Below, in pieces: positions 52,549 to 63,120 of a DNA stretch of 64,000 nt (position 1 is the first letter of the stretch; each line of letters opens with the position of its first letter). A program made the translations under genes and the position numbers. The notes under the pieces were generated by a model. It was not told where the DNA came from. It made no database searches and worked only from the letters and a program-made list of their open reading frames with translations. The stretch lies in assembly GCA_016938595.1 (NCBI GenBank), contig JAFGUJ010000020.1, positions 17,140 to 81,139 on the forward strand, in the 5' to 3' direction. The DNA is from Campylobacterales bacterium (GTDB taxonomy: Bacteria; Campylobacterota; Campylobacteria; Campylobacterales; Sulfurimonadaceae).

Positions 52549-53411
52549 TGAAGTTCCACCCGATTTTTTCCGATCACTTTGGCTTTGGAGCGTTTGCCGT
52601 CCCTTTTTTGAATCGTAATAATATCATAGAGTGCCCCCTCTTGCGTTGCGGTTGCGCTCAATTCGAGAACGACAGAGCCGTTTCGTATCTGTACGATGAC
52701 GTTTTCGTTTCTAAGAACGAGCGGAACCGCTTCGATGTTGCGGACATTCAGGAGGGTGCCGTTTTTGAGGTTTGAACGAAACCGCACCGATTCGGAGGGA
52801 AAGGCGGTGAGGGGGATGTCTTTGAACGATGTGAAAGGGACCGGTTTGAGCAGGGTATTGGAACCGCCCAGAGTCTCTTTGCGTAAAACTCTCCGGGTGG
52901 TATGGAGGACGGGGAGGAGGGCGTCGACCGAGTAGTCGAGATAGCGTCTGAGCCCCTGGGAATTGAGGACGTAGAAGGTCCCCGAACCGTTTTGATAGAT
53001 CCGGTTGTCAAAAAACCCTTTGGCGTCATGGGGTAAAGAGTCCAGGTATCCGCGCGGGGTGATCTTCACAGCGCGAATGCGGATGGAAGGGTAGCGTTCC
53101 CGAAGTTTCTCGGCCAGCTGATCTTCAAGGGATGTCAAGTCGACGGGGCTTTTTTTGACAAAATTGACGTAGCGGATCTTCGCCGTGTCGATCGTGATGC
53201 CGTGAAGTTCGAAGGTTTTGGCCAGAGTCTGGGCATCGAGGCGGTAGAGGGTCTTCTCGGCGGGGATCCTCACAACCTCGAAACGCTTTTCCACTTCAGG
53301 AAAAAGGTCGGTAGAGACGATGGTGGGGTCGGTATAGAGATACTCTTCTTTGAGTTCATGGGCATGAAATACGGAAACCAGCAACAAGAGAAGGGGTAAA
53401 AAATTATTCAT
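52545..53411 (-). CDS. flgA: Flagellar P-ring formation chaperone FlgA
   Basis: Signal peptide, C-terminal PLVLRNENV...ATQEG...AKVIG domain; usual position before ubiX. Confidence 0.75.
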   Translation of the reverse strand: MNNFLPLLLLLVSVFHAHELKEEYLYTDPTIVSTDLFPEVEKRFEVVRIPAEKTLYRLDAQTLAKTFELHGITIDTAKIRYVNFVKKSPVDLTSLEDQLAEKLRERYPSIRIRAVKITPRGYLDSLPHDAKGFFDNRIYQNGSGTFYVLNSQGLRRYLDYSVDALLPVLHTTRRVLRKETLGGSNTLLKPVPFTSFKDIPLTAFPSESVRFRSNLKNGTLLNVRNIEAVPLVLRNENVIVQIRNGSVVLELSATATQEGALYDIITIQKRDGKRSKAKVIGKNRVELQ

Positions 53412-53661
53412 TCTTTATTTTAGCACAGTTGGCCTCGATCAAAACGGTGATCTCCTCCACTTCCAGAGCTCTGGAAACAGAGACGACCTGATCGTCTATC
53501 ACGACGGAGGGGGTGCTTTTGATGTCGTAGCCGAGCATTCGGGAAAGGTCGGAGGTTTTTTCAAAATCGATGGGGCAGGGGCTGGAAAGAATCGCTGTTT
53601 CGATGTTCGCGGCGATTTCTCGGCACAGGTCGCAGCCGGTTCCGAACAGGATGATTTTCAT
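53404..53661 (-). CDS. Small thioredoxin-like protein (MTH895/Thioredoxin_3 type)
   Basis: GTGCDLC and STPSVVIDD motifs; coupled to sulP by a TGATG overlap. Confidence 0.8.
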   Translation of the reverse strand: MKIILFGTGCDLCREIAANIETAILSSPCPIDFEKTSDLSRMLGYDIKSTPSVVIDDQVVSVSRALEVEEITVLIEANCAKIKNE

Positions 53662-55328
53662 CAAGTGTTCGCTCCCAGGACGTAGCCGGAGCGGATCAGC
53701 GCTTTGTCGATATGGTCCACGATGTTGTCGTGGCCGATCTGGTCGCCGACGTGTGATTTTTCGATGAAGCGGCGTACCTGTGGATTGACGCCTGAGAGGA
53801 TAAGGTGGGTGCCGTTTTGGCCGAGCCTCTCATGCAGCACCTCGAGGGCGTGTAGTCCCGCCGCATCGATCAGGGGGACGTAGCGCATCCGGAGGATGAA
53901 AACCTGCGGCGGTTTTTCAAAGAGGAGGAGCGTATCGACCAGCTTTTCGGCAACACCGAAAAAGAGGGGCCCCTGGATCTCGTAGACCTCGACCTCTTCG
54001 GGGATCGATTTGTTGTGGATCGAATCGGGGTCGTTCTCCGCCCGCTCGACGGCGCCGATGCGGGTTGCCTTCATCATCTGGTCGATGAAAAGGATGGATG
54101 CCAGGGCGATTCCCGCCTGGATGGCGAAGTTCAGGTCGACGAGGACGGTAAGCAGAAAGGTCGTGATGAGGACGATACGGTCGGTCCGCGGGGCTTTCAT
54201 GATTTCTCTAACGTGTTTGATCTCCGACATGTTCCACGCGACGACCATCAGGATCGCCGCGAGGGCCGCGAGAGGGACCTTGACGATGAGGGGGGAGAGG
54301 AGGAGCATGAAGACAAAGAGCCACGCCGCGTGCATCATCCCCGCTACCGGGGTGCGGGCACCGGCTTTGACGTTGGTGGCGGTGCGGGCGATGGCGCCGG
54401 TGGCGGGGAGCCCTCCGAAGATCCCGGAGGCAACGTTGGCGATCCCCTGTCCCATGAGTTCGGCGTTGGGTTTGTGGCGGGTGCCGGCCATCCCGTCGGC
54501 GACGACGGCCGAGAGGAGCGATTCGATGGCGGCGAGCGTCGCGATCGTGATCGCATCGGGAAGAAGGAGGCGGAGTTTTTCGAACGTTATCTCCGGCCAC
54601 ACGGGGGTGGGGAGGGAGGAGGGGATGGCACCGAAGCGGCTCTCGATCGTTTCGACGGGCAGGGCAAGGGCCCACACCGCCAGAGCTGAGAGGACCACGA
54701 CGATGATCGGACCGGGAATTTTGGGAATATGCCGTTTCGTCAATACGATGACACCGATCGAGGCGAGGGCGAGGATGACGGCGGTGATATTGGTATCATG
54801 CAGGTGGGCGAGATAGACCCCAAGCTTCTCAAGAAAATCGGGGGGGACGGTGTCGACATGGAGGCCGAAAAAATCGCGGATCTGCGAGAAGGCGATCAGC
54901 AGCGCGATCCCCGAGGTAAAGCCGACGATCACGGGGTAGGGGATGAATTTGATCATCTCTCCGGCCCGCAGAAAAGCCATCAGGACGAGGATTCCCCCCG
55001 CCATGATCGTGGCGAGGACCAGCCCCTCGTAGCCGTGTTTCATGGCGACCGTGGCGACCGTGACGATAAATGCCGCCGTAGGGCCGCCGATCTGGTAGCG
55101 GCTACCGCCGTGGGCAGAGATCAGAAATCCCGCGACGATCGCGGTGAAGAGCCCCCGTTCGGGGGGGAGGTTGGAAGCGATCGCAATGGCCATGGCCAGA
55201 GGGAGGGCGACGATGGCGACGGCGAGACCGGCGATCGCGTCGGCGATAAAGTCGGAACGGCTGTAGCCCTGACGTCGGAAAAGGGTGATAAGTTTCGGCT
55301 CCAGTGAGTCGTGGAGTGAGCGCAACAT
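53661..55328 (-). CDS. SulP/SLC26 anion transporter with STAS domain
   Basis: PLAMA.A, IGGPT, ESLLS, GAIART motifs and STAS (GPLFFG, IDAAG). Confidence 0.93.
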   Translation of the reverse strand: MLRSLHDSLEPKLITLFRRQGYSRSDFIADAIAGLAVAIVALPLAMAIAIASNLPPERGLFTAIVAGFLISAHGGSRYQIGGPTAAFIVTVATVAMKHGYEGLVLATIMAGGILVLMAFLRAGEMIKFIPYPVIVGFTSGIALLIAFSQIRDFFGLHVDTVPPDFLEKLGVYLAHLHDTNITAVILALASIGVIVLTKRHIPKIPGPIIVVVLSALAVWALALPVETIESRFGAIPSSLPTPVWPEITFEKLRLLLPDAITIATLAAIESLLSAVVADGMAGTRHKPNAELMGQGIANVASGIFGGLPATGAIARTATNVKAGARTPVAGMMHAAWLFVFMLLLSPLIVKVPLAALAAILMVVAWNMSEIKHVREIMKAPRTDRIVLITTFLLTVLVDLNFAIQAGIALASILFIDQMMKATRIGAVERAENDPDSIHNKSIPEEVEVYEIQGPLFFGVAEKLVDTLLLFEKPPQVFILRMRYVPLIDAAGLHALEVLHERLGQNGTHLILSGVNPQVRRFIEKSHVGDQIGHDNIVDHIDKALIRSGYVLGANT

Positions 55329-55361: not shown

Positions 55362-55370
55362 AGTGTAGCA
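55362..55370 (-). promoter_or_regulatory. Extended -10 promoter for sulP
   Basis: TGc-TACACT upstream of the AAGGA RBS. Confidence 0.5.
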
Positions 55371-55389: not shown

Positions 55390-55656
55390 TTATTTAGAAA
55401 TGACTGCCGTTATCGTATAGCCCGTTTGGGCGACGGCGTTTTGCATCGCGCCGAGGGTGACACTCTCATCGGCGGTGACGAGGGCCGATTCGTTTTTGAA
55501 ATTGACGCGGGCTGCCCGAACCCCGGGGACCCCCAGCAGCGCTTTTTTGACCGCCAGGGTGCAGGCGATACAGTGCATCCCTCCGATCCGGAGACTCCAT
55601 TCGCGCGCTCCGAGGAGTGCCGCGCACAGGAGCAAAAGGGCCATTATTCTCCCCAT
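55390..55656 (-). CDS. MerP-like periplasmic heavy-metal-associated (HMA) protein
   Basis: Signal peptide, GMHCIAC..AVKKAL..VPGV and C-terminal GY; start 55656 preferred (55662 and 55644 possible). Confidence 0.85.
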   Translation of the reverse strand: MGRIMALLLLCAALLGAREWSLRIGGMHCIACTLAVKKALLGVPGVRAARVNFKNESALVTADESVTLGAMQNAVAQTGYTITAVISK

Positions 55657-56255
55657 ATCCATCCCTCGTAGTACGGATAGAAGAGGGCGGCAATGCTGAA
55701 GAGGAAAAGGACCCAGAACGCCAGGACGAGGAGACGGGAAGCCAGGCTGGGGGCGCAGTCGCATTCGATCTGCTTTTTGATTACCATTTTGTAAAAACCG
55801 ATCCCCAGCATCACTACAGCCGCCGCCGTGAAAATCCACCGGTAGGGCTCGAGGGCGGAAACGTTGATGATTCCGGCAAACGAGATGCCGAACACCATGA
55901 ACAGGGTCGGCACCAGGCAGCACGAGGCCGAGAGGAGCGCGGTGGCGAAGGCGGCAGTGAGGACGAGTACCGAACTGCGGCGTTCCTGAACGATCATCGC
56001 ATCGAGCGGGTTCTCCTCGTCCGGTTTTTCGACGTACCCTTTCCCCTTGACGATGACGAGGCGGGTGGCCCCGTCATCCAGACTCTCCTCGCTGAACGTA
56101 CAGCGCTGCGAGAGGGCGAAGCGCTTGCAGTTTTCGCGCCCCGAGAGGGTATTGACCTCGACGATGAGGGTCGCATCCTCGGGGAGGGCATCGAGCGCCT
56201 TTTTGGTCTCGAGCACCGGCCGCGGGCACTCCATGTCCCGGCAGTCGAGGATCAC
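55644..56255 (-). CDS. TusA/SirA/YedF sulfur-selenium carrier domain fused to a MerT-like transporter
   Basis: N-terminal LDCRDMECPRPVLETKKAL; C-terminal ASCCLVP, LEPYR, cytoplasmic CDC, three TMs, YPY; one uninterrupted ORF. Confidence 0.85.
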   Translation of the reverse strand: MILDCRDMECPRPVLETKKALDALPEDATLIVEVNTLSGRENCKRFALSQRCTFSEESLDDGATRLVIVKGKGYVEKPDEENPLDAMIVQERRSSVLVLTAAFATALLSASCCLVPTLFMVFGISFAGIINVSALEPYRWIFTAAAVVMLGIGFYKMVIKKQIECDCAPSLASRLLVLAFWVLFLFSIAALFYPYYEGWIWGE

Positions 56256-57334
56256 AGAATCCCCTTTGCGGAGCGGAACGCATAGCGGTAGGAGGCGGGA
56301 TCGAACGGGTCGAGGTATTCCTCCTCAACCTCGGCGTAGGGGTAGCCGAAGGAGTCGAGCATTCCCTGGGCGTTGGCGGGAAAGAGGTCGAAATCGCGGG
56401 CGTGGTTGAGGGCCATCCAGTTGTTCTCCCAGAAGCCGAAAAATTTCTCGGCGAGCGCGCGGGCGCGCGGGGAACTTTTCTCGATCCCCTCTTTGAGGAC
56501 CAGTTTCGTGATGTCGGCGGGGTCGCAGGGGATCCACCCGAGTTGCGGGGTGAAAAACTCGACCTTGCAGTGCTGCGCCTTCGTGATCGTCTCTCCCGCG
56601 CCGAACGCCGCGGAGAGGCGCGATTCCCCGACCCGGATCCCCATCACTTCGCGAGACGGGATCCCCGAGGCGCGCATCAGCGCGACGCACAGCGCCGACA
56701 TGTCGAGGCACTTGCCCCCCATATGGCCGTTTTTTTCCAGTTCGGCGAGCATGGCGTTGGGGCTTCCCGTACCGCATCCCATGACGCTCTCGTCGCGGTA
56801 GCTGTTGTCGACGATCCAGTCGTAGATCCTGCGGGCTTTTTTGAGGGGCTCTTTTTCAGCCCCGACGATGAGGGCGGAAATCCGGGCGACGGCGCCGTCG
56901 GTCGGGAGGTGCGCGGAGGGGGCCAGAAAGGCTTTGGACTCCTCGATCGTCTCGGGACAGATCCTCTGCGGACGCCAATTGCACTGCCGGTCGCGCAATG
57001 CAACGGTGAGGGAGAGCTCGAGTGTTTTGGAAGGGGCGCTTTTGCCCCAGTGGGCATAGAAGGTGCGGGCGCTGTATCGGTTGGCTTCGCTCTCGTAGCT
57101 TTCAGCGGCGTCGGTGCGCCACCCCGTTTTCAGGATCTCCTGAAATCCGCTGATCCGCGAGGGGAGGGGAATCCACAGGGAAACGTCGCCGCCGTGGTGG
57201 GAGAGGTCGAAACTCCAGCGAAGCTCATAAAGGGCCAGCGTTTCCGGACCCTTTTTCTGCTCCGCGGCAAACGAGGGGGTGAGACACAGGGTGGTGGCTG
57301 CGGCAGTATGGGTGATGAAGGTGCGTCGGGTCAT
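56252..57334 (-). CDS. Tat-exported transglutaminase-like (papain-fold Cys) protein
   Basis: TRRTFI Tat motif; GKC, QHC and DPAD catalytic triad motifs; additional GCG motif. Confidence 0.85.
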   Translation of the reverse strand: MTRRTFITHTAAATTLCLTPSFAAEQKKGPETLALYELRWSFDLSHHGGDVSLWIPLPSRISGFQEILKTGWRTDAAESYESEANRYSARTFYAHWGKSAPSKTLELSLTVALRDRQCNWRPQRICPETIEESKAFLAPSAHLPTDGAVARISALIVGAEKEPLKKARRIYDWIVDNSYRDESVMGCGTGSPNAMLAELEKNGHMGGKCLDMSALCVALMRASGIPSREVMGIRVGESRLSAAFGAGETITKAQHCKVEFFTPQLGWIPCDPADITKLVLKEGIEKSSPRARALAEKFFGFWENNWMALNHARDFDLFPANAQGMLDSFGYPYAEVEEEYLDPFDPASYRYAFRSAKGIL

Positions 57335-57337
57335 GGA

Positions 57338-58372
57338 TTATCCTACGATGATGTCGGTGTCGGCTTTGGGAACGACCTGTGCGACGATGGCGGCGCTGAT
57401 CCCCTCGGACAGGCACCGCTCCTCGATTTTGCGGGCATTTTCGGGACTTGCCGCGATCAGCAGCCCCCCGGAGGTCTGGGCGTCGAAGAGGAGCATCTCC
57501 ATGTCAGAACCGATGTCGCGCGAGAAGCGCACTTTTCCCTCCAGATACTCTTTGTTCGCGTAGCTTCCCGCGGGGATGATCCCCATCGAGGCCATCGGAA
57601 TGGCTTCGGGGAAATAGGGGACGGCGGAACTTTGTACCTCGATGGTGAGTTTTCCTCCGGCCATTTCGTGCAGATGCCCCAGAAAACCGAACCCCGTAAC
57701 GTCGGTGCAGGCGTGGGCGCCGAACTCGCGCGCGATCAGAGAGGCCTTGTAGTTGAGGGTCCGCATCGTCTCCGCCGTGCGGATCACCGCCGCATCGTCG
57801 AGCAGATCGGCCTTGATTGCCGTGATCAGGATCCCGAGCCCCAGAGGCTTGGTCAGGACGATCAGGTCCCCCTCACGGAGGGTATTGTTGCGCAGAATCC
57901 GCTCGGGATGGACGAATCCTGTGCAGGAGAGGCCGTAAATCATCTCGGGGGTTTCGATCGTGTGTCCCCCGACGATCACCGCGCCGCACTCGGCGACTTT
58001 GCTCTGGCCGCCGCGGAGGATTTCGGTGAGAATCTCGGTCGTATGGTTTTTGCCGTCGAATCCGACGATGTTGAGGGCGGTTTTGGCGTCACCTCCCATC
58101 GCGAAAACGTCGCTGAGAGAGTTCGCCGCCGCGATCTGGCCGTAGATGAACGGGTCGTCGACGACGGGGGTGATGAAATCGAGCGTCTGTACCATCGCCG
58201 TCGCGTCGTCGATCCGGTAGACCCCGGCGTCCTCGTTCCCCTCGAACCCCACCAGGAGATCCTTATGGAACGAGACGAGGTGGCAGGTGACGTCGCCGAG
58301 CGATCCGGGAGAGAGTTTGGCGGCGCACCCCGAGGCGCGGACGTATTTCGTCAGCTTGGCTTCAGTGTTCAT
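57338..58372 (-). CDS. selD: Selenide, water dikinase (selenophosphate synthetase), Cys form
   Basis: SGCAAKL, EDAGVY, DFITPVVDDP, ANSLSDVFAMG, TDVTGFG and DAQTSGGLL motifs. Confidence 0.95.
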   Translation of the reverse strand: MNTEAKLTKYVRASGCAAKLSPGSLGDVTCHLVSFHKDLLVGFEGNEDAGVYRIDDATAMVQTLDFITPVVDDPFIYGQIAAANSLSDVFAMGGDAKTALNIVGFDGKNHTTEILTEILRGGQSKVAECGAVIVGGHTIETPEMIYGLSCTGFVHPERILRNNTLREGDLIVLTKPLGLGILITAIKADLLDDAAVIRTAETMRTLNYKASLIAREFGAHACTDVTGFGFLGHLHEMAGGKLTIEVQSSAVPYFPEAIPMASMGIIPAGSYANKEYLEGKVRFSRDIGSDMEMLLFDAQTSGGLLIAASPENARKIEERCLSEGISAAIVAQVVPKADTDIIVG

Positions 58373-59390
58373 GAGGGGTCCTCGCACTGAGCTCTTCTTG
58401 CACTCCCCTGAGCGTTGCGGCCGTTTTGAGCGGATCGTCGTTGCACAGAGACATATCAGGGCGGAGGGTGGTTTTGTAGACCTTGTCGTAATACTGCGTC
58501 AGGAGGATTTCGGCGACACGGGAGAGCTCATTGTTTTCGAACGCGGCAATGGCCGAGGCTTTGTCGTCGCGGCTGATGTAGGGGGAGATCCGTTCCATCC
58601 GTTCCCGGAAGAAGGGCTCGTCCATCGTGTCGTACATCCGCATGATCCGCTCGATCCGCTGTTCGAGAGGGGCGGTAATTTCGACACGGAACCCCTGCGC
58701 CATCTGGCGGTTGAGAAGGGCGGGAAGGGTGATTTTGCCGATCCGTTTGCTCTCCGATTCGACAAACGCCCGGCGTGAGGGGATGAGTGAACGGTAGGCA
58801 TGGACGAGGCGGTTTTGAAACTCTTTTTGCGTCGGCTGGGAGCCGTTGACGTCGCCGAAGACCGAGCCGTAGTGGTTGGCCATTTTTTCCAGATCGAGGA
58901 CGTTCTCCAGGCTTTGGAGGAGGTCGCTTTTGCCGCACCCCGTGTTTCCGGCAAGGGTGATGAAGTCGATTTTAGGAAGGTTTTCCAAATAGTCGAGGAC
59001 GAATCGGCGGTACGATTTATATCCCCCCGTGACGCGGTCGATCCTGTAGCCGATGCTGGAGAAGATCGTCCCCAGCGAGGAGGAACGCATCCCGCCCCGG
59101 GCGCAGTAGATGGCGATTTTCGCGTTGGGGGTGAAGGCCGGGTAGAGCTCCTTGACATGGCTGGCAGCATTGACGCAGACATACGATGCCCCCTGAACAC
59201 GGGCCTCGAACGGTGAGACCTGTTTGTAGAGGGTACCGACGATACGGTGTTCTTCATCGCTCAGCGCGTAAAAATTGCGGGCTCCGGGAACACGGGATTC
59301 GCCGTATTCGTGCGGGCTTCGGGCATCGATCACCAGATCGTAGGTGTCAAGCGACTCCAGGAGAGTCTCGATAGGTATGGGTTGCATCAT
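58362..59390 (-). CDS. mnmH: tRNA 2-selenouridine synthase
   Basis: Rhodanese DARSPHEY and YCARGGMRS, GGYKSYR, P-loop GNTGCGKS, ESESKRIG, YYD. Confidence 0.94.
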   Translation of the reverse strand: MMQPIPIETLLESLDTYDLVIDARSPHEYGESRVPGARNFYALSDEEHRIVGTLYKQVSPFEARVQGASYVCVNAASHVKELYPAFTPNAKIAIYCARGGMRSSSLGTIFSSIGYRIDRVTGGYKSYRRFVLDYLENLPKIDFITLAGNTGCGKSDLLQSLENVLDLEKMANHYGSVFGDVNGSQPTQKEFQNRLVHAYRSLIPSRRAFVESESKRIGKITLPALLNRQMAQGFRVEITAPLEQRIERIMRMYDTMDEPFFRERMERISPYISRDDKASAIAAFENNELSRVAEILLTQYYDKVYKTTLRPDMSLCNDDPLKTAATLRGVQEELSARTPHEH

Positions 59391-59396
59391 AACGGA

Positions 59397-59405
59397 ATTT
59401 TATCA
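59397..59405 (-). promoter_or_regulatory. Extended -10 promoter giving a probably leaderless selU operon transcript
   Basis: TGa-TAAAAT ends 6 nt before ATG 59390; no RBS. Confidence 0.55.
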
Positions 59406-59468: not shown

Positions 59469-60464
59469 TCAGAAATAGTAATACAAGATCATCTTTCCCC
59501 CGTCGGAGAGATCGGTCCGCACATACGCCAGATCCAGGGCAAAACCGTTTTTGAAATCATACGTCCCCCCCGCGAGGAGCCGGTAGGCGGGTGAATCCTC
59601 CTGATCGAGCCAGAGGGCGTAGAGAGAGGAATAGACCCATCCAAAGGGTTCTTTCTGCGTCGCTTTGAGGTAGCGGTAGCGGCTATCCTCGTAGGTACGG
59701 AACCATTCGGCGATGAGGGTGAGGTCGGTGGGGCTTTGGTAGCGCAGTCCCAGCAGGGTGCTTTTGTCTCCTCCTTTGACGCCGAAATCGGCGTGGAGTT
59801 CGAGGCCGTTCCCGACGTCGGTCGAGAGATCGGCACCGAAGGCGTTTTCGGCGAGAATGAGGTCGATGTCGCTTTGCCCGGCGAGGAGATAGAGCTTGGC
59901 GCCGCCGCGGCTGTCGGTGGAGGCAAAATGGTCGCGGTTTTCACCGATGCCGGGGAGCCACAACAGATCGAGGGTGGCGGCGGAGACGATCCCCTCTTCG
60001 GGGGTGCGGGTCATCTGGGCATGGGCCATCCAGAATCCCTCGCGGGAGAGATCGGGGTAGATCGGGTCTTTGGGGCGCTCGAAAAAGGCCAGCGGGGAGT
60101 AGGCATACCCTTTTCCCCACCGCAGCACTTTTTTTCCCAGATCGAGCGATTCGCGCTCATCCCCGAACCGCTGTCTCAGTTCGTTGAGAAGAACCTCCTC
60201 ATCACGGGTGGTGCGGCTGTCGTCACGGTAGAATGCGGAGAGGTCGGCGTGGAGGTTTATGGGAGATTCGTCCCATGTCCCCTGGAGATTAAGCTCGTTG
60301 GCGGAGCGGGCGAAACGGCCGTTGTCGCTCCACTGAAGCGTATTGTCGCTGCGCAGGTAGCCGTGGTGCTCGAAACGCTTTTTTTCGAAGGTTCCGGCAT
60401 CGAAGGAGAACTCCTCCTCTCCCCAGATGAGGAGGGGGAGGAGGAGACACAGCAGGGGTCTCAT
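59469..60464 (-). CDS. Predicted outer-membrane beta-barrel protein
   Basis: Signal peptide, GKKVLRWGKG..Y.P motif, alternating amphipathic strands, C-terminal YYF. Confidence 0.65.
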   Translation of the reverse strand: MRPLLCLLLPLLIWGEEEFSFDAGTFEKKRFEHHGYLRSDNTLQWSDNGRFARSANELNLQGTWDESPINLHADLSAFYRDDSRTTRDEEVLLNELRQRFGDERESLDLGKKVLRWGKGYAYSPLAFFERPKDPIYPDLSREGFWMAHAQMTRTPEEGIVSAATLDLLWLPGIGENRDHFASTDSRGGAKLYLLAGQSDIDLILAENAFGADLSTDVGNGLELHADFGVKGGDKSTLLGLRYQSPTDLTLIAEWFRTYEDSRYRYLKATQKEPFGWVYSSLYALWLDQEDSPAYRLLAGGTYDFKNGFALDLAYVRTDLSDGGKMILYYYF

Positions 60465-61171
60465 CAGCGCAGGTCGTCCAGCTTGGAGAGGTTTTCCAGA
60501 GTAAAGACGGCGTTGTCGAGGGGGCGTTTTTTGATCGACCCGTAGACTATGATCGACTTGAACCCTTTTTGGAGCGGGCTGGTCGTCTCCAGCACCGAGG
60601 GGCGGACGATCCCCCCGCCGAAATCTTTGGGTTTGAGGTAGCGGATCGTTTTGAGGACGATCCCCCCTGCGATGCAGTCGATCGAGGTGGGGAAGAGGCT
60701 TTTTTTGTCGACGTTCATCCGGAGCTTTTCATAGGTGCTCTCGGGGGTTTTGGCGACCAGATCGAGGTGATAGAGCTCGGGAGTCTCTTTTTGGGAAGCG
60801 ATTTTGTACTCTGCGCCGAAATCGACCTGCATGATGTCGGCGTTGTTGAAAACGCCCCCCGTGACACTCTGCATCGAGGCGATCCGCAGCGGTTTGGCAA
60901 TCCCGGGGATGTAGAGCCACATGTTCTGATCGACCCGCAGCGTGGCGCGCCCTTTGTCGCTGGCGGGGGAGAGGAAGAGGGAAGCGACTTTGGTCTTGTC
61001 TTTTTTTACCATGTACATGACGAACTCCTTGCGCGTTCCGTCAGGCTCGATGTTGATCAGCTGCCGCACGCTCTCTGTGGAGAAGGGGTTGAGCTTTTTG
61101 TCGATCTGCTCGAGCAAATCGGCACCGAAGGCCAAGGCAGGGAAGAGGAAAAAGGGGAGTAAATATTTCAT
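60464..61171 (-). CDS. LolA-like outer-membrane lipoprotein-sorting family protein
   Basis: Signal peptide; FLSPASDKG, MWLYIP, RI, F..AD and VFT..NL motifs. Confidence 0.78.
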   Translation of the reverse strand: MKYLLPFFLFPALAFGADLLEQIDKKLNPFSTESVRQLINIEPDGTRKEFVMYMVKKDKTKVASLFLSPASDKGRATLRVDQNMWLYIPGIAKPLRIASMQSVTGGVFNNADIMQVDFGAEYKIASQKETPELYHLDLVAKTPESTYEKLRMNVDKKSLFPTSIDCIAGGIVLKTIRYLKPKDFGGGIVRPSVLETTSPLQKGFKSIIVYGSIKKRPLDNAVFTLENLSKLDDLR

Positions 61172-61172
61172 G

Positions 61173-62384
61173 TTAGCTCCTTAGGGCATCGACGGGGTTC
61201 ATGCGCGCCGCTTTGAGGGCGGGATAGAGGGAAGCGAGGGCGGAGACGACAATGACGAGGACGCCGATGAACGCTACCTGCGTGCACGCCAGGACGGGAG
61301 AGAGGAGGATGTCGTCCTGGCGTCCGAAACGGATCGTCATGTCGCCGATTCCGTAGACGACCCCGTAGGAGAGGGCGGTGCCGACGACGAGTCCGAAGAT
61401 CCCCAGCAACATCCCCTCAAATAAAAAGGTGCTCAGAATAAACGAAGAGGGAGTTCCGATCGCGCTCATGGTGCCGATCTCCTTGATCCGCTCATACACG
61501 CTCATGATCATCACGTTGAGGATCGAGATCAGGACGATCGAGATGAGGATGATCTGGATGGAAATGCTCATCAGGTCGATCATTTTGGCGATGCTGCTAA
61601 AGGGGCTCAGCTCCTCCCATCCGTGAATTTCCAGAGGAGGTTTATTTGAAGCCAGCAGAAGGTGCGTGAGCTTTTGGCGGATTTGGGGAAGGGCGGAGAG
61701 GTCGTGAAGGCGGATGGCGATTTCGTTGGCCTCGTTCTGGTGGAGCCGCAGCAGGGATCGCGAATCGTCGATATGGATGTAGCCATCACGCCCTCCGGGG
61801 CCGGAGATACTCTGGAGGATGCCGGCGACTTTGAAGGTGCGGGCGTTCATCGAACCGATGTTGTTGGTGACGACGAGGACGACGCTGTCGCCGATTTTGA
61901 GGTTCATCCCTTTGGCGACGATGTCGGGGATCAGCACTTCTCCGTGGGCGAAGTCGGCGTTTCCGATGATACGGGAGCGCAGCTGCGGCAGGGTCGAGTG
62001 CTCGATGGCGGGGTCGATTCCGTTGAGACGGAGGTTGGTGGAGGTGTCGAAATTGCTGATCAGGGCCGAATGTTTCAAGCGAAGCGAATACGATACGATC
62101 CCCTCCATGGCGTCGAGTTCGCGCTCTATCGTGCGGAGTTTGTGTTCGGGGATGTTTTTGTCGAGGGGCATGTTGTCGAGACTCGCGACGTACCCCTGCC
62201 GGTGAATCTGCAGATGCCCCAGCATGCTGTCGGTGATCTGGCCGATCATGTAGTGTTTGAAGCTTCCCGAAAAAGCGGCAAAGAGGAGGACAAACATGAC
62301 CCCGATCGCGATCAGGGCGGTTGTGAGGATCATTCTGCGGCGGTTGCGTTTTAACGTGCGGTAGGCGATTTTTAGGCTTTTCAT
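61173..62384 (-). CDS. ABC transporter permease (MacB/LolC/FtsX type)
   Basis: 1+3 TM topology, RNRRR, ERIKEIGTMSAIG and PALKAARMNPVDALR. Confidence 0.9.
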   Translation of the reverse strand: MKSLKIAYRTLKRNRRRMILTTALIAIGVMFVLLFAAFSGSFKHYMIGQITDSMLGHLQIHRQGYVASLDNMPLDKNIPEHKLRTIERELDAMEGIVSYSLRLKHSALISNFDTSTNLRLNGIDPAIEHSTLPQLRSRIIGNADFAHGEVLIPDIVAKGMNLKIGDSVVLVVTNNIGSMNARTFKVAGILQSISGPGGRDGYIHIDDSRSLLRLHQNEANEIAIRLHDLSALPQIRQKLTHLLLASNKPPLEIHGWEELSPFSSIAKMIDLMSISIQIILISIVLISILNVMIMSVYERIKEIGTMSAIGTPSSFILSTFLFEGMLLGIFGLVVGTALSYGVVYGIGDMTIRFGRQDDILLSPVLACTQVAFIGVLVIVVSALASLYPALKAARMNPVDALRS

Positions 62385-63058
62385 CCGTTGCTCCGATCAT
62401 CCATAATCCGGCCGTCCTGGAGGGTGACGATCCGTCTGGCTTCGGTCATGATTTTGGTGTCGTGAGTCGAAAAGACGAAGGTGGTGTTGAATTTCTCCTG
62501 CATCTGTTTCATCAGGTCGATCACCTTTTTGGCCGAGACGCTGTCGAGGTTGGCGGTCGGCTCATCGGCGAGGATGATCCGGGGATTGACGACGAGGGCG
62601 CGCGCGACCGCGACCCGCTGTTTCTGCCCGCCGCTGAGCTGGTCGGGGTATTTGTCGATCTGGTCCAGCATCCCGATCGCTTCGAGCACCTCTTTGACCC
62701 GTTCGCGGGTGTTTTTTTCTCCGAGGATGACCGAGAGGGGGAACTCGACGTTTTCATAGACGGTGAAGCTCTCGATCAGGTTGAAATCCTGAAAGATGAA
62801 CCCCAGATGTTCGGCACGGAAGCTCAGCGCCTCTTTGTTTTTCAGGGACGATACGATCGTGCCGTCGATCGTGATCTCTCCCGAATCGGGTTTGTCGAGG
62901 CAGCCGATCAGGTTAAGGAGGGTGCTTTTGCCGCTGCCGCTGGGGCCGACAATCGCGACGAACTCTCCGTCCCCGATCGTGAGATCAAGCCCTTCGATGA
63001 CGGGGGTGGTCACTTCCCCTTCCTGATAATGTTTGACCAGTTTGACTACCTGTATCAT
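62381..63058 (-). CDS. ABC transporter ATP-binding protein (LolD type)
   Basis: [27 protein letters not shown] and STHD motifs. Confidence 0.93.
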
Positions 63059-63120
63059 AAGCAAATCCAATATCATAAAATATAACAGAGGAGTATAGCA
63101 TAAAAACATTTCTGAAGGAA

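Follow-up and report, generated by a model that had tools for sequence, protein, structure and literature searches.

In a 64,000-nucleotide stretch of the Campylobacterales bacterium contig JAFGUJ010000020.1 (the window), we found a selenium operon in which the genes for tRNA 2-selenouridine synthase (selU) and selenophosphate synthetase (selD) are followed by a trio of genes, here called the module. The trio encodes a predicted exported transglutaminase-fold protein (Tgl), a MerT-like membrane protein, fused in the window to a TusA domain, and a MerP-like protein. Comparison of genomes showed that its link to selenium is strong and one-way, the trio being kept only where selD is kept, and it is likely an undescribed route of selenium capture and delivery. 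The features of the operon are as follows.

59397..59405, minus strand: extended -10 promoter-like box TGnTAAAAT, TGATAAAAT, seen in the sequence 6 nucleotides (nt) upstream of the selU ATG.
58362..59390, minus strand: selU/mnmH, tRNA 2-selenouridine synthase, 342 amino acids; TIGR03167 at 319 bits (cut-off 220), NF008750 also above its cut-off.
57338..58372, minus strand: selD, selenophosphate synthetase, 344 amino acids; TIGR00476 at 356 bits (cut-off 125).
56252..57334, minus strand: tgl, predicted transglutaminase-fold protein exported by the twin-arginine translocation (Tat) route, 360 amino acids; PF01841, N-terminal twin-arginine motif TRRTF.
55644..56255, minus strand: tusA::merT, fusion of a YedF-type TusA domain to a MerT-like protein, 203 amino acids; PF01206 at residues 2-70, PF02411 at residues 98-199.
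55390..55656, minus strand (start 55656 preferred, 55644 possible): merP-like HMA protein with a predicted signal peptide and the motif GMHCIAC; PF00403.

The order selU-selD-tgl-tusA::merT-merP forms one tightly packed operon, its successive junctions being an 11-nt overlap, a 3-nt gap, a 4-nt overlap and, at the annotated merP start, a 1-nt overlap. The merP gene probably begins at 55656 (MGRIMALL, as in its relatives), 12 nt earlier than the annotated 55644, which would turn the last overlap into one of 13 nt. Of 16 related selU genes, 14 have the same extended -10 box 5-7 nt ahead of their start, and the closeness of the box to the ATG suggests that the selU mRNA is probably leaderless. 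The genes, spacing and box on which a first-pass annotation had based a single five-gene operon were all recovered. Both selD, which encodes the cysteine form of the enzyme (ASGCAAK), and selU passed curated cut-offs, so the selenouridine trait is present in the window genome, a Sulfuricurvum-like assembly of 216 contigs that is 89% complete. Selenouridine formation in tRNA via SelU was the only use of selenium found there, and no tRNA-Sec was detected among its 40 tRNAs.

The main evidence for a role in selenium metabolism comes from distribution. Among 66 genomes of the genus (Sulfuricurvum), selD was present in 45, and tgl occurred in 32 of these 45 but in none of the 21 genomes without selD. 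The TusA::MerT fusion was found in 32 genus genomes, fragments included, and one fragment lies at a contig end of a selD-negative bin (G059). Across 251 Campylobacterota genomes, tgl was present in 94 of 190 with selD and 0 of 61 without it, and the pattern held when the largest genus was removed (40/135 compared with 0/61). For 251 Burkholderiales genomes, the corresponding counts were 65/192 and 3/59. Co-occurrence with selD, which the first-pass annotation had proposed as a check, was thus found in all three samples. Searched against GTDB species genomes, the Tgl alignment gave more than 600 matches, of which the best 80 were used and, with seven plasmid loci, made up a set of 87 loci. Among the best 80, 16 already held selD and 14 near-duplicates were left out; when the other 50 genomes were searched, 47 had a selD match (two in long fusion frames, one partial), and all seven Pasteurellaceae among the 50 were selD-positive. 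Within the 87 loci the trio ranges over Campylobacterota, Pasteurellaceae, Enterobacteriaceae, Shewanella and a few others, and a blastn comparison of the Citrobacter trio with 5,426 E. coli genomes detected no copy. A specific link to selenocysteine was considered and rejected: among selD-positive Burkholderiales, selA was present in 21 of 65 genomes with tgl and 47 of 127 without it, showing no preference, and just 6 of the 66 genus genomes have selA. Within the genus, the operon mostly serves selenouridine.

Because the genomes compared are related and not independent, Fisher p-values overstate the association, and repeated gene linkage therefore weighs more. In the 30 best genus loci, the order selD-tgl-tusA::merT-merP was kept wherever the contig reaches, with selD visible in 27. 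In G007 the trio is divergent, with 47% Tgl identity and without TusA, and adjoins selB-selA (L044). By automatic detection over the 87 loci, tgl has merT and merP as neighbours in 54; yedF or a sel gene is present in 21, of which 13 have the trio and 8 do not. In at least six distinct arrangements, tgl or the trio is a neighbour of selD, selA/selB or yedF, including tgl-tusA::merT-merP-yedF-selD (L068), yedF-tgl-tusA::merT-merP-selD (L188, L190, L192) and tgl-merT-merP-selD-selA-selB-yedF (L198). The module is divergent from selD in Arcobacter, and in Rhizobiales and Burkholderiales tgl lies beside selD, selA or selB together with fdo genes; formate dehydrogenase genes are frequent neighbours of tgl. 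On a 53-row FastTree of Tgl, the selD-adjacent label requires six changes and the selenium-adjacent label seven. Linkage to sel genes thus recurs in many independent gene orders.

The Pfam names of MerT and MerP suggest mercury, and we therefore looked for the remainder of a mer operon. Neither a merA nor a merR homologue was found in the window, and no merR match was found in 117 loci, the window or the window genome, while a merA search of the same loci plus the window gave just two weak flavoprotein matches at 25-32% identity. The window genome showed no MerA over the cut-off, no mercury-type MerR, no YeeE/YedE (PF04143/NF033796) or FdhT and no SelA; since its 89% completeness limits each of these absences, relatives were examined, and MerA exceeded the TIGR02053 cut-off in 0 of 66 genus genomes. 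From sequence and context, the best match to the MerA model in the window genome, a protein encoded beside lipA without the C-terminal cysteine pair, looks like a lipoamide dehydrogenase, and the sole MerR_1 match looks like HspR. The absence of a mercuric reductase or MerR gene from the window, noted earlier, was thus confirmed, and the trio is independent of merA/merR. A trio without merA, suggested for Haemophilus influenzae in the first-pass annotation, does occur in the wider family Pasteurellaceae, and in a Pasteurella multocida record the trio is annotated amid housekeeping genes. Furthermore, nine plasmid mer-type MerTs formed one clade (support 99) apart from all 52 trio MerT-like proteins in a quick tree of 61 rows and 116 columns with unknown root. 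With no merA or merR found in the locus or the 89%-complete genome and the mer-operon MerTs in a separate clade, mercury resistance was rejected.

The proteins themselves both resemble and depart from the mer pair, whose parts are defined in PMC3466566. Like MerP and MerT, the trio has an HMA domain with CxxC and a signal peptide, a three-helix protein with a helix-1 cysteine pair and a loop cysteine, and the gene order merT-merP. Unlike mer operons, it lacks merA and merR, falls in separate clades, is always accompanied by Tgl, is tied to selD and has TusA fused. The fusion carries Cys5/Cys10 in the TusA domain, Cys112-Cys113 in helix 1 and Cys165/Cys167 in the loop before helix 3. Its MerT-like half passes PF02411 (42.3 compared with 32.9 bits), has three membrane helices by hydropathy and model, and found no solved match in a structure search. 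In the alignment, C112-C113 are invariant and C167 near-invariant, so that the helix-1 pair and one loop cysteine are kept throughout. The loop motif of trio proteins is CxC or a single C, in contrast to C-x5-C in the mer-operon MerTs fetched, and the MerP-like motif is GMHCIAC or GM(T/H)CPLC, as opposed to xM(T/N/D)CxxCP in the mer MerPs fetched. Curated mercury models were not reached by either protein (47 compared with 150 bits for NF010314/NF033560, 48.5 compared with 92.55 bits for TIGR02052), although the MerP-like protein meets PF00403.

The TusA domain points in another direction. It was found to be sister to Sulfuricurvum YedF (support 97/94), which supports the proposed tie to selenium carriers by deriving the domain from a selenium protein. 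The fusion does not reach the YedF cut-off (TIGR03527, 51.5 compared with 110 bits) and matches in its N-terminal part only, DsrE being replaced by the MerT-like domain. Both trees hint that the fusion arose twice, but one common origin was not rejected (p-AU 0.158 and 0.277). A membrane protein coupled to a TusA-type acceptor is also found in the thiosulfate uptake system YeeE-YeeD (TsuAB) and in the selenium accessory systems YedE/FdhT with FdhU/YedF, and the modelled TusA domain superposes on SirA, TusA and YeeD (8K1R). The YeeE thiosulfate transporter has in YeeD an essential TusA-type partner whose cysteine becomes modified by the substrate (PMC11073785), and SirA-like proteins have been linked to selD (PMC2432076). 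By analogy, fusion to a domain of YedF ancestry would mark the membrane part as a chalcogen carrier. Compared with the YeeE/YedE systems, this membrane part is MerT-like rather than YeeE, and there are two additional partners in the periplasm.

The trio member that tracks selenium throughout is Tgl, with or without MerT/MerP. Based on the model of its homologue P0102 (predicted local distance difference test score 90), Tgl has a transglutaminase fold, with 3ISR as best match (Z 20.8, root-mean-square deviation 3.3 over 262 residues). The protein meets the PF01841 core (67.3 compared with 23 bits), and its invariant alignment columns are Cys187 (GCGxG), Cys209 (GGKC), His255-Cys256 (QHC) and Asp271, with C209, H255 and D271 the invariant residues of the core. 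It shares fold and Cys-His-Asp motif order with transglutaminase-like cysteine proteases (PF01841; 3ISR from Cytophaga, TgpA). In contrast to these proteases, it has two extra invariant cysteines (GCGxG, QHC), a twin-arginine signal and a distribution bound to selD. No NCBIfam family matches Tgl, and the ESM Atlas gave nothing beyond PF01841. The named homologues nearest to that of the window are from Sulfuricurvum. In the FastTree, Tgl falls into two clades, one always with MerT/MerP (26 rows) and one without (27 rows, one with MerP). In the latter, tgl often neighbours the gene for a TlpA-type thiol reductase, and a TlpA-type CxxC protein adjoins tgl in 8 of 30 Burkholderiales loci and in 6 other loci without MerT/MerP.

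We also examined whether the module stands in for YedE, as had been proposed. Among selD-positive Campylobacterota, YedE/FdhT was rarer with tgl (17/94) than without it (57/96), also after removal of the dominant genus (14/40 compared with 56/95, p 0.014). This depletion agrees with the proposal, but 17 selD-positive Campylobacterota have both tgl and YedE/FdhT and 39 have neither, and strict replacement as a rule was rejected. The distribution fits functional overlap. Within the genus, canonical YedF was present in 7 of 13 selD-positive genomes without the module, and one genome has both YedF and the module. YeeE-family matches occurred in 5 of 8 selD-positive genomes without the module, 1 of 8 with it (broken) and 0 of 5 selD-negative genomes, all far below the selenium-type models and best to thiosulfate TsuA, so they were not counted as YedE. 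FdhTU have been named as formate dehydrogenase accessory proteins (PMC4178425).

An additional sign of selenium-related control was seen in the leaders of related tgl genes. A six-pair hairpin with an A-GGY-T apex precedes 29 of 59 first-in-unit (stand-alone) Campylobacterota tgl genes, an enrichment that is post hoc since this three-base-loop pattern was picked after the leaders had been viewed. It was found on the antisense strand in 0 cases, in 5 of 17,700 shuffles and in 0 of 14 operon-internal tgl genes. It lies 30-110 nt upstream of tgl in L077, L079, L083-L086, L094, L191, L193, L194, L198, L200-L203 and L221. The stems comprise 10 distinct sequences with compensatory changes at five of six pairs, and a single Campylobacter sequence accounts for 11 of the 29. 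That the arms vary while the loop is fixed and oriented argues for RNA. A looser five-pair pattern matched 11 of 1052 control leaders, two of them ahead of a double-cubane reductase gene, and a four-base-loop version gave 5/89 compared with 23/1052 controls. The hairpin also precedes the SelD-linked double-cubane reductase gene of Arcobacter (leaders L084:5299 and L091:5300); this family occurs almost only in SelD genomes according to Haft (bioRxiv 2022.07.06.499078). The selenocysteine insertion sequence (SECIS) hairpins of local selD genes likewise end in a GG loop, and the tgl hairpin appears SECIS-like, with SelB as a putative ligand. SelB represses selAB of E. coli through a SECIS-like leader (bioRxiv 2026.03.03.709296), and both systems have a strand-specific GG-apex hairpin upstream of selenium-related genes. 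Unlike the E. coli leader, the tgl hairpin is often 80-110 nt from the start. A related hairpin, CCGC-AGGT-GCGG, was seen ahead of tgl in five enterobacterial loci (L115, L117, L119, L121, L123). One Campylobacter group (L094, L103-L111, L114, L125, L223) has two tandem tgl paralogues, with the hairpin only before the second.

From these parts we infer the cargo, the direction, each transfer and the chemistry of Tgl, and hold with moderate confidence that the trio is a periplasm-to-SelD thiol relay that captures selenium and delivers it inward. Tgl would be exported folded by Tat, and its three invariant cysteines would turn dilute selenite or an organic selenium compound into a protein-bound reduced species. 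The MerP-like CxxC would carry this species in the periplasm, and selenium would cross the membrane via the helix-1 cysteine pair and then the inner loop cysteine of the MerT-like protein. The fused TusA domain would take it as perselenide and feed SelD, and SelU would put the selenophosphate to use on tRNA.

Several observations weigh against this relay. MerT/MerP folds are characterised for cations and not for a chalcogen. The Tgl clade without MerT/MerP indicates that Tgl can be independent of that channel, and 41 of the 54 trio loci (Enterobacteriaceae, Pasteurellaceae, Campylobacter) have no selenium gene within 8 kb. The module is not required, because most selD-positive genomes lack it (96/190 Campylobacterota, 127/192 Burkholderiales, 13/45 in the genus) and the 39 Campylobacterota noted above lack YedE/FdhT as well; the 17 with both speak against a simple exchange. 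Among the three Burkholderiales with tgl and no selD match, G180 has selU and the Tgl of G309 has lost the GCG motif and sits on a long branch, but G151 has tgl with all motifs and neither selA nor selU was shown. Finally, the window operon has no leader structure, Rfam family or hairpin; being hairpin-less and leaderless-looking fits a genome without selA.

The dependence on selD would be explained equally well if the module protected selenium users, by trapping thiophilic metals (Hg, Cu, Ag) that consume selenide, by making mercury selenide (HgSe) or by exporting excess selenium, which we regard as possible but unlikely. Proteins of the MerT/MerP folds bind soft metals, there are selenoprotein families that resemble MerT and MerP (PMC13188914) and are matched weakly by the window proteins (NF045683, NF041115), and YedE itself was once proposed as an exporter (PMC5322559). 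However, probes for merA and merR revealed no metal-sensing regulator or reductase near the 117 loci, the YedF-type carrier fusion and the translational coupling to selD fit delivery, and the partial exclusion with YedE also speaks against protection. A SECIS-like leader, by analogy with E. coli selAB, would shut the module off when selenium is plentiful, the opposite of what export needs, and detoxification through HgSe is disfavoured. It seems improbable that Tgl, as an enzyme of the periplasm linked to selenium, has a different task, such as recovering selenium from peptides or maintaining the redox state of exported seleno- or molybdo-enzymes, with MerP/MerT just bringing it electrons or thiols as TlpA may in the other clade. 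The TlpA-type and formate dehydrogenase neighbours and the tracking of selD without MerT/MerP favour such a role, but a selenoenzyme client is usually missing, as the selA counts show, and the TusA fusion speaks for transfer of a chalcogen within the cell. TusA is known to carry sulfur, and stand-alone copies occur in Gammaproteobacteria, yet ordinary metal handling, an orphan remnant of a mer operon or a relay of sulfur to tRNA thiolation, beside selD by chance inheritance, is largely refuted and merits very little credence, given the missing MerA, the separate MerT clade and loop motif, the loss together with selD, the many independent linkages and a need for tRNA thiolation with or without selD.

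We found no description of the trio in the open-access literature searched, and a prior mention is possible. Reviews state that no specific selenium transporter is known (PMC13188914, PMC9312934). The rank-6 STRING partner of YedF in the list of Lin et al. is a transglutaminase-like enzyme, given without comment where it is listed (PMC5322559), and the fdo-sel cluster on pSymA is confirmed in PMC8124441, which does not mention a transglutaminase. If the relay is true, the 'mercury resistance' annotation of many genes in Campylobacterota, Pasteurellaceae and enterobacteria would be corrected, an unnamed transglutaminase-fold family would gain a function, and the MerT/MerP fold would be able to carry a non-metal. 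The module is a directly testable three-gene candidate present in tractable hosts (Citrobacter and Shewanella; Sinorhizobium for tgl).

Next to the operon, sulP (DauA-like, below cut-off) is coupled to an MTH895/ArsE-like thioredoxin at 53404-55328 on the minus strand, and comes after merP in just 4 of 30 related loci. The separate sulP promoter of the first-pass annotation is plausible: a weaker promoter-like pattern, TGCTACACT, lies ahead of sulP at 55362-55370, but this is no more than a sequence pattern, and the interval from merP to sulP in the window showed no terminator-like site. Just upstream of selU, at 59469-63109 on the minus strand, is a four-gene unit of an ATP-binding cassette ATPase, an FtsX-type permease, a LolA-like protein and a 331-amino-acid protein without Pfam or NCBIfam match.

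In other loci, tgl directly follows selB and a tRNA-like stretch (L067:9700-9848, L141:7870-8001) that, read by eye, looks like selC. Frameshifts or stops break selU, selD, tgl and tusA::merT in L060 (G061) and tgl in L120, through decay or assembly error. In L063, a Providencia plasmid carries the trio close to rep and mob genes, and neither selenium nor mer genes are annotated within 12 kb. Sulfuricurvum loci with selU-selD and no module (L031-L043) often have a CTAA-N8-TTAG palindrome, a possible operator, in the -35 region of the leaderless selU promoter; it was not seen in the window. In five Sulfuricurvum genomes (L038, L044-L047), a second selD type clusters with genes for a ferritin/R2-like protein, an Rv1679-like acyl-CoA dehydrogenase and an Rv1680-like binding protein, with selA also nearby.

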